Below are positions 55,620 through 61,696 of a stretch of 64,000 nt of DNA, one piece after another. The translations under genes were made by a program, and so were the position numbers. The stretch is from Pseudomonadota bacterium (GTDB taxonomy: Bacteria; Pseudomonadota; Gammaproteobacteria; Steroidobacterales; Steroidobacteraceae). The notes under the pieces are model-generated. The model was not told where the DNA came from and did not search any database. It worked only from the letters and a program-made list of their open reading frames with translations. The first letter of the stretch is position 1; every line of letters starts with the position of its first letter. Where the stretch lies: positions 18,968 to 82,967 of the forward strand of contig JAEYUC010000051.1 of assembly GCA_023433705.1 (NCBI GenBank), in the 5' to 3' direction.

Positions 55620-56300
55620 ATGCTGATTCGCGTGCCGAACCTGTTGAGCGCCGAGCAGGTGGCGGAGTGCCGCCGCCTGCTCGACGCCGCCGAATGGACG
55701 GACGGCAAGTCGACCGTCGGCGAGCAGGGCGCGCTGGTGAAGCGCAATCGGCAACTTCCCGAACTGTCGCCGGTTTCCCGGCAGCTCGGCGAGCTCATCC
55801 TCACCGCGCTCGCGCGCAATCCGTTGTTCTTTTCCGCCGCGCTGCCGCTCAAGACCGTGCCGCCGCTGTTCAACCGCTACGAGGGCGGCGAGCACTACGG
55901 CATGCACATCGACGGCGCCGTGCGCGCGGTGCCGGGCAGCACGCACTTCATCCGCACGGACCTGTCCTCGACGCTGTTCCTGACGGATCCGGCCGACTAC
56001 GACGGCGGCGAGCTCATCGTCCAGGACACCTACGGCGAGCACTCGGTCAAACTACCCGCCGGCGACCTGATCCTGTACAACTCCGGCAGCCTGCATCGCG
56101 TGAATCCCGTGACCCGCGGCGCCCGCATCTGCTCGTTTTTCTGGACGCAGAGCATGATTCCCGACGATCGCCACCGCGAGCACCTCTTCCGGCTCGACCA
56201 GACCATCCAGAAGCTGCGCGGCAGGATCGGCGAGACCGACGAAACCGTCGCGCTGGCCGGGCACTATCACAACCTGCTCAGGATGTGGTCGGAGATCTGA
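55620..56300 (+). CDS. piuC: Fe(II)/2-oxoglutarate-dependent oxygenase, PiuC/YbiX family
   Basis: 226 aa, [34 protein letters not shown]...[16 protein letters not shown]... Confidence 0.8.
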
Positions 56301-59300
56301 TACTCCACTATCCGTTAATCCGGGATCGGTTCCGCTTAATCCAAGCGTCTATTCTTCCTGCAAGTTAATTGGTTCCCTCTTCAGGAACGGTACCAATAAT
56401 GAATATTTCCGTGACGAACTACTCAGCCACGAGTGTTCGCGTACCCTGGCTGTCTATCTAGGCTAATCAGAAGCGTATTGTCAGATGCAATCGCTAGCAT
56501 CGACAACCAACACGTCAGATTCTGTTCGGAGAGGCCAATGGCGGAGATCGAAGCGCTTCCGTTGCACCTTCATACGCTGGATAGCTTGAGCGACGATCTG
56601 CTGGCTGGGCGGAAGGTGCTGTTCGCGGACTCTGCAGAAACTGGGGAGATCTTCGTCCTTAGTGAGAACGAGAGAAGGGTCTTTTCTTGGTATAGCCAGA
56701 ACCGCGGCAAGTGGGCAAAGAATTGCCTGAAGGAAGATGTGGAAGCCATTGCGGCGACTCTTGGCAACGCTCTGCCAAAAACGCGCGATCGTCAACTTCG
56801 AGACGGACCAAAGCGCGTTCGCCATTTTCATCTCTTGAAGATCCGAGCATTTCGGTTCGGGGGCCTTCATCTATTTGGCAGTGCAATCGCTGACAAGCCG
56901 CCAGTATTTGAGTTTGCATGCTCAAGTCCAATGACTCTTGTGCAGGGTAAGAACGGCTCAGGGAAGACTTCGCTTCTTAACGCCATTACTTGGTGTCTTA
57001 CAGGCCACGTATTTCGGCCCTCAAGCGAGCCAGAACCGGGAGCTGGCCCAATTGAGGTTTCTAATAGCGAATCTGAGGGCCAGACATGGGAACTTGCCGG
57101 TGTTACCCCCCTTCCGCCGCGGGATGCTCTCGCGGGCTTTCCGAGCCGTGGAGTTCCGCTTGATACATGGGTCGAACTGATACTCGGCACTGAGGACGGC
57201 GCCGAGTACGCAGTGAGGCGTGAACTAACGCGAACAGCCAGGGGAAATGTTCAGGAGCAGATTACCGGGCTATCGGAACTCGGCTTGGATCCAATAAGCC
57301 TTGAGCTCGGGACCAAAATGCCCGGGCTGCTTCCATATATTCGGCTTGGAACTCGGCCATCGGAACTCGGAAAAGCTATTGCTCAACTAACTGGGTTAGC
57401 GCCCCTTCGCGATCTATCTAAGCATGCGTCTAAAGCATATGAGAAATTAACAGCAGAACTACCAAAGGAACGCCGCGCCGATATTGCTGTCGTTGAATCG
57501 ACCTACTTAGCTGACCAGAAAAAGCTGGATGACCTGGTAAAGGTTCATCCCTTGATTGCAGAGAAACCAATACTGGTTCCCAAGCCTTCCGATGAGAATG
57601 CAGCATCCCAACTAGATGCGTTGCAGGGCCAACTCGACGGGCTTTGTGCACAACTGCTTGAAGACGTTGAGGGCGTACTGACGACGGATTTCGATCCGTC
57701 GGTCGCAACCGATAGGGCCGCTCTCGCCAATGACTTGCCATTGTGTAGAGCCGCGTGCAGACCAAGCAACCTACTAACTTTGGCCTCGGTCGCGAGAATC
57801 TCGGGTCTCAAGGGACTTGAGGAAAATCAACTTGGAGATGCGGAGAAAGTCATCGCCGAGTTGGAACTGCAGGCAAGTGAGCTGCTCGAACTTGCAAAAG
57901 AACCAAGGGCCGCCTCCCGCACTCGTCTTTACGCATCGGTCGGCTCATGGATGAGAAACGAAAAATTCACCGATTCACGCCATTGCCCGGTCTGTATTGG
58001 TGAGCTTGGTAAAGCAAAGGACCCGATCACAAATGTAGAAATCGAAAAACTCCTTGAAGAACACCGAAATGGCGGCCGGTCGCACCTTTCATTGACTACA
58101 GATCAATGGGTGAATTCGGCGCGTCAACGCCTTAAGGACGCGCTTCCAACGGCGCTGGCAGCTGAGCTGACATCTGCGAAGTTGGTGAATCCAATTTCCC
58201 AAATTTCCGATGAGATGGTTGATGATCTGTTTCGACTGGAATGCTTCTCTGGGCCGCTCAAGAGTCTAAAAGCCAAACTAAAAGATCAGGCGCGAGCACT
58301 TGCCGGTAAGCTGCCATCATTCGAAGTCGATGGAGCAGCAATTCCGCATATCGCGCGCCTCTCGAGTGCTCTCGCGCAGATGATTGAGAAAGTTCGAGCC
58401 GCCATCGCCGCTGCTCGGTGGCGTCGAAAGAACGAGAGAGAGTGCCGAATTTTCTACTTCGGCCTAGTTGGACGAGATAAGCGGCAAGCCACTGAACAGC
58501 AACAGGAGGAAATCGAAAGCCCTACTGAAGGGACATTGCTCGACATTCTCACGGCGCTCGATCGAATCGTTCAATCTGCTGGGCCGGCAGCGGACGCTGC
58601 ATCACTTGTGCGTGCGCTTTCAAAATCACTCAATTCTCGGGCTGCACTCGAATCAAGAATAGAGACATATATCGAGGCTTCGAAAGCCGTGAAGACGTTA
58701 GGAGGACTAGGAACACTAGTTGATCGGCAAATCGAGGGGTTGCAGACTCACCTGCATGAGAAAACTGAACAACTCCGTAACGCTATTTATCAGTCCGCCT
58801 ATTCAAATTCGGCATCGCCCAAACTCAATCGCACTCGGGTGTCAAACGACGGATCTCTCAGCCTAGAAGTCGAGCGGAACGGAACTTGCGCGCCAGCACA
58901 AATCGTTGGAAATGCGTCTGATCTTCGCGCAACTCTCCTCGCGTTCCTATTCTCGTTTTGGTTGCACGTATCGAAGACACGAGGCGGACTTAGTATCTTC
59001 CTGCTTGATGATCCGCAAGAGTTGTTTGATCCAGATAATCGTCGTCGGGTCGCTAACGGAATTCCGCAACTCGTAAAGGAAGGGGCGCGACCTATTGTTG
59101 CCTGCAACGATGACCGATTTTCAGAGAAACTTGGGAGTGCAGACGGATGCGATAGACGTGAAATCAAACCAGCAGGGAAGGTCTGTCCAGTAGCAAGGGT
59201 TTTGCCCCATGAGGTTTCCATAGACAGAAAACGTCACGCCTTCGAATCGCCGGTGAACGAGGAAGATCATTCAATTGCACAAGACTATGTTGGTTCGCTT

Positions 59301-60547
59301 CGAGAGTGGCTGGAAGGACAATTCGCAGACTTCTTTTTGCCATCGGCAAAAATATTCTCGAGTGAACCGACTCTAGGAACATTGATCGATACATTTCGAA
59401 GTCGGGTGATGTCCGGATCGGAGGCGTTTGCCGGGCCGGCCGCCTTGGCGCTTGCAAGATGTTCAGACCTTCTTGCGTCGTCATCGACGTATGAGCTCTT
59501 GAATAGGGCGCACCATCGCGATCGGGCAACAATTACTGCCGGAGAAGTTCGGGCGGTCGACGGTCAGCTTAGGCATATACAGAATCTAGTTAGCCGAGCA
59601 CACGAAGAGCTGGAACTGTGGCTAAGTCGAGACCTAAACGCGCGTGGATCGGGACCTGCGCTCAGACAGACCTTGTCAGGAGAATTCAAGTCTAGGCCAT
59701 TTATTGTTCCCATAGTTCGCGACCTAGCAGCGTTTACCACAAGGACAATTGAGCACGACCCGCAGCTTGAAGAGGTTCCATTAACCGATGGTTGGTTCCG
59801 TGGAACAGGCCTCTTCCAGCTGGGTAGCAACAATTTCGGCTTCAGCGCCCCGAAACACAGCATTGCAATCGTTGAGCTGGAACCGAAGGAAATCCTTGAT
59901 AGTCGCCTTGTCATCGCGTTGGTTGATGGGAAGGTGTATGCACGCCGGCACATCCAAGATCAAAAGAATCCAAAGATGATCGCGCTAATCTCAGAGGCTG
60001 AGAATCCGCTGGAACGCGCGCCATCCATAGTTATACCTGCGCAGCAAGCACAGCTGCATAAGGTGGTTGGCATCCTCTTTGAAGATCGTGCGCCAGCCGT
60101 GCGAATAAAGGGCGATGCAGCTCAAATTCAACATTCGTCATTGTTGGATTCTGTGGAGGTTGCCTTCAAGGTTAGACAAGACAGCGCCCTTCCGTTGGCA
60201 ATTGAGGGACAGTTGGTCATTGGAGGTCGGCGCGTCGAGCCGCGCGAGATTTCGAACGCAGTAGGAAAGGTTGTTGCGGTGGCAACTACCGATGGCCAAC
60301 ATGCGCTAAAGCGCCTTGGCGACGAAGTCCCCGGTCTGGCGGGTGTGCACTACTTCGATTCAATTGGTGGGAAAGGTAATTCCCTGATTGCGCGAATTGC
60401 ACAATCGCCGCGGGTGGAGGAAGAGCGCCTAGCTATTCCCAAAATCGAATCGCTACGCATTATCCTCGGTGTGCTTTACGTTACAAGCTCCTGATATGCT
60501 TGACTCCCGAGTGCTGGGGCGCGGAAAACGGGTGTCAAAAGGCGCAG
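56301..60547. other. low-GC genomic island carrying a single giant ORF (no integrase, tRNA or IS visible)
   Basis: Hand counts of sampled 60-nt lines give 29/60 (line 57421) and 31/60 (line 58681) GC inside. Flanking lines give 45/60 (line 55501) and 41/60 (line 61021). Codon usage also shifts abruptly toward A/T-ending codons. Confidence 0.8.
56538..60494 (+). CDS. 1318-aa SMC/Rad50-like ABC ATPase with a CxxC hook, PrrC/RloC-like motifs and two C-terminal LexA/S24-like modules (hypothetical; candidate defence protein)
   Basis: The ATG at 56538 follows GGAGAGG. Walker A is GKNGSGKTS (56946-56972). A helical insert of roughly 600 aa contains CPVC (57984-57995). Walker B and downstream read SIFLLDDPQELFDPDN...PIVACNDDRF. 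LREWLE...LLNRAHH follows. The C-terminal modules are ...LVIALVDGKVYARRH... and ...VRQDSALPLAIEGQLVIGG...GQHALKRLG... Confidence 0.85.
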   Translation: MAEIEALPLHLHTLDSLSDDLLAGRKVLFADSAETGEIFVLSENERRVFSWYSQNRGKWAKNCLKEDVEAIAATLGNALPKTRDRQLRDGPKRVRHFHLLKIRAFRFGGLHLFGSAIADKPPVFEFACSSPMTLVQGKNGSGKTSLLNAITWCLTGHVFRPSSEPEPGAGPIEVSNSESEGQTWELAGVTPLPPRDALAGFPSRGVPLDTWVELILGTEDGAEYAVRRELTRTARGNVQEQITGLSELGLDPISLELGTKMPGLLPYIRLGTRPSELGKAIAQLTGLAPLRDLSKHASKAYEKLTAELPKERRADIAVVESTYLADQKKLDDLVKVHPLIAEKPILVPKPSDENAASQLDALQGQLDGLCAQLLEDVEGVLTTDFDPSVATDRAALANDLPLCRAACRPSNLLTLASVARISGLKGLEENQLGDAEKVIAELELQASELLELAKEPRAASRTRLYASVGSWMRNEKFTDSRHCPVCIGELGKAKDPITNVEIEKLLEEHRNGGRSHLSLTTDQWVNSARQRLKDALPTALAAELTSAKLVNPISQISDEMVDDLFRLECFSGPLKSLKAKLKDQARALAGKLPSFEVDGAAIPHIARLSSALAQMIEKVRAAIAAARWRRKNERECRIFYFGLVGRDKRQATEQQQEEIESPTEGTLLDILTALDRIVQSAGPAADAASLVRALSKSLNSRAALESRIETYIEASKAVKTLGGLGTLVDRQIEGLQTHLHEKTEQLRNAIYQSAYSNSASPKLNRTRVSNDGSLSLEVERNGTCAPAQIVGNASDLRATLLAFLFSFWLHVSKTRGGLSIFLLDDPQELFDPDNRRRVANGIPQLVKEGARPIVACNDDRFSEKLGSADGCDRREIKPAGKVCPVARVLPHEVSIDRKRHAFESPVNEEDHSIAQDYVGSLREWLEGQFADFFLPSAKIFSSEPTLGTLIDTFRSRVMSGSEAFAGPAALALARCSDLLASSSTYELLNRAHHRDRATITAGEVRAVDGQLRHIQNLVSRAHEELELWLSRDLNARGSGPALRQTLSGEFKSRPFIVPIVRDLAAFTTRTIEHDPQLEEVPLTDGWFRGTGLFQLGSNNFGFSAPKHSIAIVELEPKEILDSRLVIALVDGKVYARRHIQDQKNPKMIALISEAENPLERAPSIVIPAQQAQLHKVVGILFEDRAPAVRIKGDAAQIQHSSLLDSVEVAFKVRQDSALPLAIEGQLVIGGRRVEPREISNAVGKVVAVATTDGQHALKRLGDEVPGLAGVHYFDSIGGKGNSLIARIAQSPRVEEERLAIPKIESLRIILGVLYVTSS

Positions 60548-61696
60548 CTAGTCGTTCGAGCTTGAAGTCCCAGGCCGCACCGCCGGCAGCACGTGGCGAG
60601 TCAGGATATCGAACGGCAGGTCGGACGCCCGCGAGTTGTAGTTCGACGCGGTGAACGTCACGACGAGATCGAGCGCGGGAATCACGAAGATGTAGTTCCC
60701 GCCGTTGCCGGACGTGAAGAAACTCTCGACCGTGACTTCGGTGTGATGCGGGAACGAACGCTTCCACCACAGGAACCCATAACCATCGGAGCCCAGCCTG
60801 TTCACGGGCAACGCAGATTCGGCCACCCACGCGGCCGGGACCACCTGTGTTCCATTCCACTCGCCACCGGCCAGGTAAAGTTGCCCGAGCTTCGCGGCAT
60901 CGCGGGGCTTGAGCCGCAGGCCGCCGCCGCCGGTGGCGCGCCCGTCGGGCGACCGGCGCCAGATCGATTCGCGGATGCCGAGCGGATCGAATAGATAGGC
61001 CTGGGCGTAGGCGTCGAGCTCCATCCCGGACCGCAGCGATACGATGTGCCCGAGCAGGACGACGCCGCCGGTGCAGTACTGCGGCACGGAACCGGGCGTG
61101 AAAGGCGCAGGAAGGTCGAGCACGAAGCGGATCCAGTCCCTCGAGTCGTACATCCGCTCTTCCTGCCCCGGCGAGTTCGCCACCCAGTCATCACACGCGA
61201 GCCCGGAGCTCATGTTGAGCAGGTGGCGGATCGTGATCTCGCGTTTGCGGTCGCTCATGTTCTCGTGCCCGTCAAAGTTCGGGATGTGCCGGGACGCCGT
61301 GTCGTCCACGCCCAGCAGGCCCTGATCGATGGCGATCCCGACCAGCGCCGACGTGAAGCTCTTGCCCGTCGAACGCAGGTCGTGCAGCGAGTCGCGGCCG
61401 AAGCCGTTGAAATAGCCCTCCGCGACCAGGCGTCCGTGGCGCGCCACGACCATGGAATCCACGCGCCGATACTCGCCATCGCGGATACGGTTGAGGGCGG
61501 CGGACAGGGCGGCCGCATCGATGTCCTCGGCGACCGCGGTCGAGACGGTCCAGCCGTCACCGGTGTCCTCGGGCGTGATCGAAACCAGCGGCGGCAGGCC
61601 TGGATTCACATCGCGCGGCGGGTCGCTGCCGTCGTCTCCGAAGCGGCAAGCGGTGAGCAGCAGGGACAGGACGAGGACGAAAACCTTGTGACGCAT
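60548..61696 (-). CDS. serine hydrolase (beta-lactamase/PBP4-like family) lipoprotein
   Basis: Start at the internal Met (61696), MRHKVFVLVLSLLLTAC (lipobox). The SxxK motif is LRSTGKSF. Confidence 0.75.
   Translation of the reverse strand: MRHKVFVLVLSLLLTACRFGDDGSDPPRDVNPGLPPLVSITPEDTGDGWTVSTAVAEDIDAAALSAALNRIRDGEYRRVDSMVVARHGRLVAEGYFNGFGRDSLHDLRSTGKSFTSALVGIAIDQGLLGVDDTASRHIPNFDGHENMSDRKREITIRHLLNMSSGLACDDWVANSPGQEERMYDSRDWIRFVLDLPAPFTPGSVPQYCTGGVVLLGHIVSLRSGMELDAYAQAYLFDPLGIRESIWRRSPDGRATGGGGLRLKPRDAAKLGQLYLAGGEWNGTQVVPAAWVAESALPVNRLGSDGYGFLWWKRSFPHHTEVTVESFFTSGNGGNYIFVIPALDLVVTFTASNYNSRASDLPFDILTRHVLPAVRPGTSSSND

Follow-up and report, generated by a model that had tools for sequence, protein, structure and literature searches.

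The window, a 64,000-nucleotide (nt) stretch of DNA from a bacterium of the Steroidobacteraceae, carries on its forward strand one large gene that encodes a protein with a Rad50-like ATP-binding cassette (ABC) ATPase head, a helical domain and two LexA/S24-like modules (Table 1). The longest open reading frame (ORF) here extended from 56433 to 60494 (+) and opened at GTG; counted from the ATG at 56538, it encoded 1318 amino acids (aa). This ATG was taken as the start because of the GGAGAGG upstream of it, the 100% identity of the window protein to a public protein of the same length (P0001), and the common start of the homologues, whose conserved sequence opened at residues 1-9 in all. An earlier reading of the sequence by eye (the original prediction) had described the ORF as a single-gene system joining an SMC/Rad50-like ATPase and its hook to a PrrC/RloC-like nuclease module and tandem S24 modules. 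The ORF was real, every motif listed lay at the residue given, and the domain boundaries fell near those claimed (1-95, 96-290, 291-760, 761-875, 885-1037, 1080-1185 and 1190-1316).

Table 1. Features of the gene and its island, in window coordinates
Feature	Positions	Strand	Basis
Low-GC island	56250..60550	.	GC 0.50-0.58 inside vs 0.62-0.69 on both flanks, sharp edges
Shine-Dalgarno GGAGAGG, 3 nt 5' of ATG	56528..56534	+	Direct sequence reading
Complete ORF, 1318 aa + stop	56538..60494	+	Identical to public protein P0001
Conserved N-terminal domain, aa 1-95	56538..56822	+	W51, Y52, W59 invariant in 36-sequence alignment
ABC ATPase head, N-lobe, aa ~96-290	56823..57407	+	Pfam AAA_23, SMC_N, AAA_29; Rad50 N-lobe in PDB
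Walker A, G137-KNGSGKTS-145 (K143)	56946..56972	+	G137, N139, G142, K143, T144 in 115/115
Insert between head lobes, aa ~291-760, ~470 aa	57408..58817	+	LmuB hidden Markov model (HMM) coverage, heptad signal
CxxC, C483-P-V-C486, putative zinc hook	57984..57995	+	Both Cys in 115/115 and 56/56
ABC ATPase head, C-lobe, aa ~761-875	58818..59162	+	Rad50 C-lobe at profile positions 798-857
Signature-position motif N792-A-S794-x-L796-R797, 32 aa before Walker B	58911..58928	+	Conservation in 115
Walker B + D-loop, IFLLD824-D825-PQELF-D831	58995..59030	+	D824, D825, D831 in 115/115
Family-private helical domain, aa 885-1037, candidate RNase effector	59190..59648	+	AlphaFold2 model, Foldseek, HMM search
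R922-x3-E926 (in LREWLE 921-926)	59301..59315	+	Both in 115/115; R in 56/56, E in 55/56
N989-x-x-H992-H993 (in LLNRAHH 987-993)	59502..59516	+	N in 113/115, H992 in 114/115, H993 in 115/115
Strand + loop I1059-VRDLAAFT-1067 with A1064-A1065, candidate cleavage region	59712..59738	+	Conservation, AlphaFold2
S24-like module 1, aa ~1080-1185, without Ser/Lys dyad	59775..60092	+	Pfam, Foldseek, hhalign
S24-like module 2, aa ~1190-1316, putative dyad S1216 + K1258	60105..60485	+	Motif, spacing, secondary structure
S1216 codon; K1258 codon	60183-60185; 60309-60311	+	Motifs D-S-A-x-P and F-K-R-V-G

The gene and its 237-nt upstream spacer were the sole content of a segment of low guanine plus cytosine (GC) content; overall GC around the island was ~0.66. 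A TonB-dependent receptor and a PiuC-like 2-oxoglutarate-Fe(II) oxygenase were encoded on the upstream flank, and a beta-lactamase-fold hydrolase, an extracytoplasmic function (ECF) sigma factor and a FecR-like anti-sigma factor on the downstream flank. Around the island no long direct repeats or tRNA-type att marks were found, and nothing convincing as promoter or terminator. The sharp confinement of the GC dip to the gene, the ordinary chromosomal flanks and the failure to find repeats or att marks suggest that a single gene of foreign origin was inserted here.

Conservation was scored in 115 homologues, in 56 full-length representatives, the most distant at 21% identity, and in a 36-sequence alignment. 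At least 199 relatives were found in a collection of 5.8 billion proteins; the best 120 of these aligned over 92-100% of the query at 33-47% identity and were nearly all 1280-1340 aa long, and across the family full-length identity ranged from 21 to 47%. A scan of species-representative genomes (one genome per species) gave 166 relatives; the 80 that were kept came from Alpha-, Beta- and Gammaproteobacteria, Planctomycetota, Acidobacteriota, Nitrospirota and Desulfobacterota. The family counted more than 170 collinear homologues, spread over at least six phyla, and its members were labelled at source only as "ATP-binding protein", "AAA family ATPase" or "hypothetical protein". K143, C483, C486, D824, D825, D831, R922, E926, H993, S1216, P1219 and K1258 were invariant in 115/115 homologues, so the motifs picked out by eye were not chance resemblances; K143, C483, C486, D824 and D831 were also retained in 56/56 full-length representatives.

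Pfam AAA_23, SMC_N and AAA_29 matched residues 123-165 (AAA_23: E = 2e-11, 45.3 bits vs a cut-off of 27), and NCBIfam gave sub-threshold RecF, SbcC and Rad50 matches only. In a profile search of the PDB with 36 full-length members, Rad50 heads were closest, with both lobes matched in 3qf7 (2.6e-9), and were followed by RecF, SMC and PtuA. The C-lobe matched the PADLOC models mad3, LmuB, mad8, PD-T4-4_A, NsnB, AriA and PbeC, with matches in 40-42 of 46 members. At the signature position N-A-S-x-L-R replaced LSGGQ (N792, S794 and L796 invariant, R797 in 113/115), and we infer this to be the ABC signature motif. The motif around D824/D825 read SIFLLDDPQELFD, with Glu in place of D825 in 2 of the 56 representatives. 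The ABC H-loop position (aa 857; 59106-59108) had no conserved His: among the 115 homologues, 60 have Tyr there, 31 His and 16 Asn, and the window copy has Asn.

The best PADLOC model for the window protein was Lamassu LmuB (PDLC03859, E = 1.5e-14), which covered aa 293-842. In a crude analysis the heptad signal was modestly raised at aa 241-400, 441-480, 601-680 and 721-760, on both sides of the CxxC. From the LmuB coverage, this modest signal and the analogy with Rad50 and RloC (PMC2610378), the insert is presumed to form coiled-coil arms. On sequence grounds the protein was shown to be a Rad50-class ABC ATPase, its lobes split by an insert of ~470 aa with an invariant CxxC. The SMC/Rad50-like ATPase (AAA_23, Rad50 in the PDB over both lobes, LmuB HMM) of the original prediction was thus upheld, as was the CxxC (CPVC 483-486) of its putative hook; among the Pfam families that it expected, AAA_23 was found on the head and Peptidase_S24 on module 1, whereas AAA_13 matched 1 of 36 members (E = 0.022).

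The C-terminal ~260 aa formed two LexA/S24 folds in an AlphaFold2 (AF2) model of aa 872-1318 (predicted local distance difference test (pLDDT) 85.6; AF2 input alignments were made of substrings of retrieved homologue proteins). Foldseek matched them to the C-terminal domains of LexA, lambda cI and UmuD' at probability ~1.0, with template modelling (TM) scores of 0.55-0.66 and superpositions of ~95 residues at 2.6-3.4 Å; the matches were 3k2z_B (1.1e-4), 6a2s (TMt 0.66; root-mean-square deviation 2.8 Å over 97 columns), and also 1jhf, 1kca and 1umu. The sequence profile of the tandem had no match in the PDB, and hhalign detected no similarity between modules 1 and 2. Pfam Peptidase_S24 (PF00717) matched module 1 (aa 1052-1188) in 42/56 members (best 5.6e-6), and the window's own module 1 at 0.026 (aa 1080-1168; 14.7 bits, gathering cut-off 23.3). 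Against a 3-sequence LexA/UmuD/cI alignment, hhalign aligned module 1 weakly (E = 1.2e-3, 62 columns) and placed N1099-G1101 near the LexA S119 position and the invariant R1136 at K156; G1101 and F1102 drifted in distant branches.

In module 2, S1216, P1219 and K1258 were invariant also in the 56/56 representatives, while their surroundings drifted. The Ser-Lys spacing was 42 (vs 37 in LexA and 43 in cI), and the two residues were placed as in LexA, on a strand-loop-strand and on a strand of the AF2 secondary structure. S1216/K1258 are therefore a putative Ser-Lys dyad by motif, spacing and secondary-structure pattern, with no significant alignment. Because the dyad positions were lost in module 1 and kept in module 2, the copy recognisable to Pfam is, as judged from its residues, a pseudo-protease, and the divergent module 2 retains the putative dyad. 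Two S24/LexA-like modules had been claimed, and both folds were recovered (Foldseek ~1.0; Pfam on module 1), but the modules were unequal and the dyad was present in module 2 only.

Ahead of module 1, A1065 was conserved in 115/115 and 56/56 and A1064 in 110/115 and 51/56, and in distant branches the Phe after A1065 gave way to R, H, K or A. The AF2 model placed the strand ending L-A-A confidently, followed by a low-pLDDT loop (1067-1069) just before module 1. By analogy with LexA, we infer that A1064-A1065 may hold the cleavage-site position.

The AF2 model of aa 885-1037 (28-sequence alignment) was all-helical, with pLDDT 90.7 and a predicted TM score of 0.85. Foldseek against the PDB gave a best E-value of 1.2; 13 of the 50 listed matches were HEPN domains, all at E > 1 (sacsin, TM0613, HepT toxins, HI0074 and others; TM up to 0.51-0.57). 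Nothing was found by Foldseek among viral structures, and the domain gave noise only in a profile search of the PDB (NRC2, a P450) and in Pfam at E ≤ 10. The AF2 and Foldseek check that had been proposed thus returned the S24 folds but only non-significant HEPN matches for the helical domain. When 1.84 billion representatives were searched exhaustively with the helical-domain profile (hmmsearch), 174 proteins were returned, and no RloC or PrrC protein was reached. The 140 new listed matches were 55 full-length and 85 shorter proteins; 83 of the 85 aligned collinearly with the window protein by BLAST and were therefore taken as fragments of the same architecture.

Among the 56 representatives, H993 was invariant, N989 and H992 each varied in three, and E926 was Asp in one. 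In RloC the anticodon-nuclease triad is Arg-X3-Glu-X36-52-His (PMC2610378), with R692-E696 as the R-x3-E pair, and in PrrC the essential residues Arg349 and Asn352 precede His356 in the order R-x2-N-x3-H (PMC3025547). Invariant polar residues at PrrC spacings, in a helical domain whose other positions evolve fast, speak for an active site, and this domain most likely carries, to judge from residues and model, one of the PrrC/RloC/HEPN kind. The PrrC/RloC-like nuclease module of the original prediction therefore stood as far as the R-x3-E, N-x3-H and DD Walker B spacings go; it did not stand as to a profile link or an equivalent of Arg349, and its HEPN resemblance stayed at E > 1.

It is unlikely, in our estimate, that the S24 module is instead the effector or sensor, cleaving a protein of host or phage in trans or binding RecA* filaments, with the helical domain as transducer only and its R/E/N/H residues serving inter-domain signalling or nucleotide/nucleic-acid binding. 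The five polar residues at PrrC spacings speak against this alternative, and LexA, UmuD and cI, the known S24 members, are self-cleaving regulators, not trans-acting effectors. It would agree with the S24 fold being the sole C-terminal assignment with significant support, with the invariance of Ser1216 and Lys1258, and with the lack of a significant nuclease match for the helical domain.

The N-terminal domain (aa 1-95) had no match in Pfam (noise only at E ≤ 10) or in the PDB, and may be a sensor or interaction module.

With tblastn against PLSDB the gene was located on 25 plasmids, of which 19 were conjugative or mobilizable. Several plasmid copies were disrupted by frameshifts or an IS630 insertion; such frequent inactivation fits a costly or toxic gene. 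Phage origin was rejected, since tblastn against 50,697 phage records gave 0 matches. The gene is real and constrained, horizontally mobile and sporadic in its occurrence. The same distribution bears on a further alternative, a housekeeping or accessory repair factor for DNA damage (SOS-type), which the Rad50-like head with LexA-like modules could suggest, as could the proposed response of RloC to DNA breaks and one Prokaryotic Genome Annotation Pipeline record with the Gene Ontology term 'double-strand break repair'. That term, however, was assigned automatically on account of the ATPase domain, and the patchy cross-phylum distribution, foreign base composition, plasmid carriage, insertion sequence (IS) flanks, frequent pseudogenes and lack of conserved synteny make a repair role highly improbable.

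The PLSDB copies H7-H14 were on Bradyrhizobium plasmids of ~979 kb and on the Rhizobium leguminosarum plasmid NZ_CP016290.1, and several were degraded. Some degraded copies consisted of two pieces spread over five or six 'hypothetical protein' calls, and one was broken by an IS630 transposase.

In 81 loci, all ORFs up to 7 kb on either side of the gene were clustered. No neighbour was common to more than 7 loci, so conserved partner genes were rejected and the gene was regarded as stand-alone, in agreement with the single-gene system originally proposed. The immediate neighbours across loci included resolvases, transposases, PtuA (Septu), BrxH, SngC, SoFic, MmeI-type enzymes and Schlafen/AlbA proteins. 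A BREX cluster and DruA with transposases were near the gene in one genome; IS630, IS3 and Shedu were close to a Methylorubrum plasmid copy, and conjugative leading-region genes and sbcCD were near a Croceicoccus plasmid copy. Mobile-element and defence genes recur beside family copies, which is suggestive.

The adjoining sbcCD on one plasmid, the Rad50 heads as best PDB relatives and Lamassu LmuB (aa 293-842) as best defence HMM would also be expected of a DNA-directed, Rad50/SbcC/Lamassu-like machine that acts on foreign DNA ends or hairpins, recruiting or activating a host nuclease or blocking replication. Its C-terminal domains would then serve oligomerisation, and the C-terminal domain of LexA is a dimerisation domain. 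We regard such a machine as rather improbable: it leaves the invariant Ser/Lys dyad and the R/E/N/H set unexplained, no Mre11/SbcD-, LmuA- or LmuC-like neighbour was conserved, and PrrC and RloC have Rad50-like heads, yet their substrate is tRNA.

Several individual neighbourhoods were recorded for their own sake. A co-oriented 4-gene set lay just upstream of the gene in a 7-locus block of one sub-clade only (L007, L017, L028, L029, L038, L062 and L067; partly also L065; for example L028:4643-9857), in highly diverse hosts (Rhizobium, Hyphomicrobium, Stappiaceae, Nitrospira, Paracoccus and Kaistia). Its products were of 668-749 aa (weak GHKL/HATPase_c match), 423, 391 and 226 aa, three of them without a Pfam match, and the 226-aa gene terminated 114-117 nt 5' of the family gene; the set may be a second uncharacterised system that travels with it. 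A protein of ~1900 aa (DUF4011, superfamily 1 helicase AAA_11/AAA_12, MTES_1575 restriction-endonuclease fold, DUF3320) was encoded within a few kb at five unrelated loci (L045:15392-21106, L079, L007, L008 and L074). In Aquipseudomonas alcaligenes (L082:6408-9761) a protein of 1117 aa that weakly matched a NACHT NTPase was encoded directly upstream of the gene, with MqsRA and umuDC a few kb further upstream. In Variovorax (L084:13949-14542), 3' of P0019 and on the same strand, a 2',5'-RNA-ligase/LigT-like 2H-phosphoesterase began 19 nt past the stop; an enzyme for 2',3'-cyclic-phosphate RNA ends beside a putative RNase is suggestive, at this one locus only.

In the window's own spacer (56301-56537), within the low-GC island, TTAATCC occurred twice, 22 nt apart (56315-56321 and 56337-56343), and a GGTTCC-N7-GGAACG palindrome lay near 56371-56389. 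These elements could be operator sites, going by their form, and fit none of the patterns that we take to be LexA-box consensuses. Inside the PiuC-like oxygenase gene an imperfect 41-nt direct repeat (55877-56037; 76% identity, 120 nt apart) is probably an internal echo of the double-stranded beta-helix fold.

The reading preferred here, with about even confidence and largely by analogy, is that the gene encodes a stand-alone, horizontally mobile anti-phage or anti-plasmid abortive-infection protein that would act in the manner of RloC, belong to a separate undescribed family and be gated by its S24 modules. A link of the abortive infection to DNA damage or phage, as originally modelled, is plausible. 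The preferred reading draws on the foreign GC, the mobile and sporadic spread, the stand-alone gene, the Rad50-like head, the PrrC-type spacings, the S24 fold and the deep conservation; on the mobile-element and defence genes that are often neighbours; and on a helical domain that is confidently folded, with HEPN domains enriched among its weak matches.

In such a protein, two chains would pair through the zinc hook and the ATP-engaged heads, and the ATPase would sense a nucleic-acid cue, for example DNA ends or replication intermediates, as proposed for RloC. The signal would be relayed to the helical domain, where R922, E926, N989, H992 and H993 would form a metal-independent RNase site of PrrC/RloC/HEPN type and shut down translation. 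The S24 tandem would be the gate, with module 1 as a pseudo-protease scaffold, and S1216/K1258 of module 2 would either cut A1064-A1065 before module 1 or hold that segment as a pseudo-substrate. Filaments of RecA on single-stranded DNA (ssDNA) are a possible co-protease, and activation would be irreversible, or responsive to RecA*/ssDNA, as in LexA, UmuD and cI. It is doubtful that the gate works by autoproteolytic release, in which head engagement (ATP/DNA) or RecA*-ssDNA would present A1064-A1065 to S1216/K1258, so that the chain is cut, the inhibitory S24 tandem is lost and a new HEPN-like RNase, private to the family, is irreversibly freed.

Several observations weigh against an S24-gated abortive-infection RNase. 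The helical domain had no significant match in sequence or structure to any nuclease in Pfam, the PDB, the HMM search or Foldseek. No Arg was present 4-6 residues before either His (the motif is L-L-N-K-[AS]-H-H), as the HEPN pattern Rx4-6H would have it; position 986, equivalent to PrrC Arg349, which is the Arg of the HEPN pattern in that enzyme, was variable (V/A/T/E/R); and 66 residues separated E926 and H993 (distance 67), vs 32 in PrrC and 36-52 in RloC. In the C-terminal tandem, Pfam Peptidase_S24 matched module 2 (aa 1186-1316) in 0 of 55 members, and hhalign aligned module 2 to LexA/UmuD/cI over a mere 23 columns around the Lys. At the candidate cleavage site Ala-Ala stands in place of Ala-Gly (no Gly follows), and the A1064-A1065 segment was left unaligned to the LexA site by hhalign. 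The window copy was surrounded by iron-uptake and ECF-sigma genes and by no defence genes, and the association with defence islands was anecdotal, a matter of individual loci.

Fusions of an ABC ATPase to a nuclease of the PrrC and RloC type are classic phage-exclusion proteins, and how their ATPase gates the nuclease is poorly understood. The present family extends that logic by a pair of LexA-type modules, of which one is dead and the other has its putative dyad intact, and by an orphan N-terminal domain; this architecture is fixed in six phyla or more. Self-cleavage by the S24 dyad, if it occurs, would be a new route to irreversible immune activation and could couple it to RecA filaments, the controlling signal of SOS and of prophage induction. 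Should autoproteolytic release hold, protease gating would be seen for the first time in a single-chain abortive-infection system of the ABC-ATPase class, and SOS-type signalling would be tied directly to immunity. The family is a tractable test case, a single gene with clear sites for point mutants (K143, C483/C486, R922/E926/H993, A1064/A1065 and S1216/K1258). It is also an annotation gap: hundreds of genomes, and plasmids of rhizobia, sphingomonads and pseudomonads, carry it under the bare label "ATP-binding protein".

No model for the whole family was found in Pfam, NCBIfam or PADLOC (2023), and the PADLOC check gave the partial LmuB match as its best. No literature was found on an ABC/Rad50-HEPN-S24 fusion or citing four of the family accessions, a mention in the ABC-ATPase classification of Krishnan et al. 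(2020) being possible. The claim that there is no described counterpart therefore held across these models and the searchable literature.

Among known systems, RloC resembles the family in being a single chain with a Rad50-like head split by a CxxC insert and followed by a C-terminal helical domain, catalytic in RloC and putatively so here, and in usually having no fixed partner gene. With PrrC it shares the DD Walker B and a D-loop Asp six residues on, as in D215, D216 and D222 of PrrC (Meineke and colleagues, PMC3025547), and its R922-x3-E926 and N989-x3-H993 are spaced as R320-E324 and N352-H356. It differs from both in length (1318 aa vs ~400 in PrrC and ~800 in RloC), in the near absence of AAA_13, and in the added N-terminal domain of ~95 aa and S24 tandem tail of ~260 aa. 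The PADLOC PrrC model matched 5 of 46 members (aa 765-1045; best 1.4e-4) and was outside the 25 best PADLOC matches of the window protein. Membership of PrrC/RloC was rejected, as Pfam and PADLOC scans of the whole protein and of the C-lobe with the helical domain gave generic ATPase matches only; a chimeric query built from the PrrC motifs quoted in PMC3025547 returned no candidate PrrC sequences.

The defence-associated SMC/ABC ATPases are likewise close in part. Lamassu LmuB resembles the family in its ATPase and insert, but its partner genes LmuA and LmuC were not conserved beside the family in the 81 loci. The ATPases of mad3, mad8, PD-T4-4_A, NsnB, AriA, PbeC and PtuA were among the best PADLOC matches. 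Such systems are multi-gene (LmuA/LmuC, AriB, PtuB), whereas a single gene is found here, and the HMM matches were confined to the ATPase and insert, leaving the N-terminal domain and the C-terminal 450 aa uncovered. Rad50/SbcC, the closest solved structures by profile, also have a CxxC in the insert; the family differs in having no Mre11/SbcD partner, shorter arms, the DD Walker B, and extra N- and C-terminal domains.

With LexA, UmuD and cI the family shares the beta-barrel fold and, in module 2, a Ser-x-x-Pro ... Lys-Arg pattern at LexA-like spacing. As in LexA, a pair of small residues lies on a strand-loop N-terminal to the fold, Ala-Ala here where LexA has Ala84-Gly85. The family differs in that the domain is doubled with a first copy free of the dyad, that module 2 is below Pfam detection, and that the candidate site is Ala-Ala rather than Ala/Cys-Gly; in addition, the DNA-binding helix-turn-helix of LexA is missing, and the fusion is to a putative ATPase-effector and not to a repressor. 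To our knowledge the S24 tandem tail is carried by no described RloC, PrrC or ABC-HEPN protein. Compared with the known single-chain ABC-ATPase-nuclease conflict proteins, the new parts are this S24 tandem, the private candidate effector domain and the orphan N-terminal domain.

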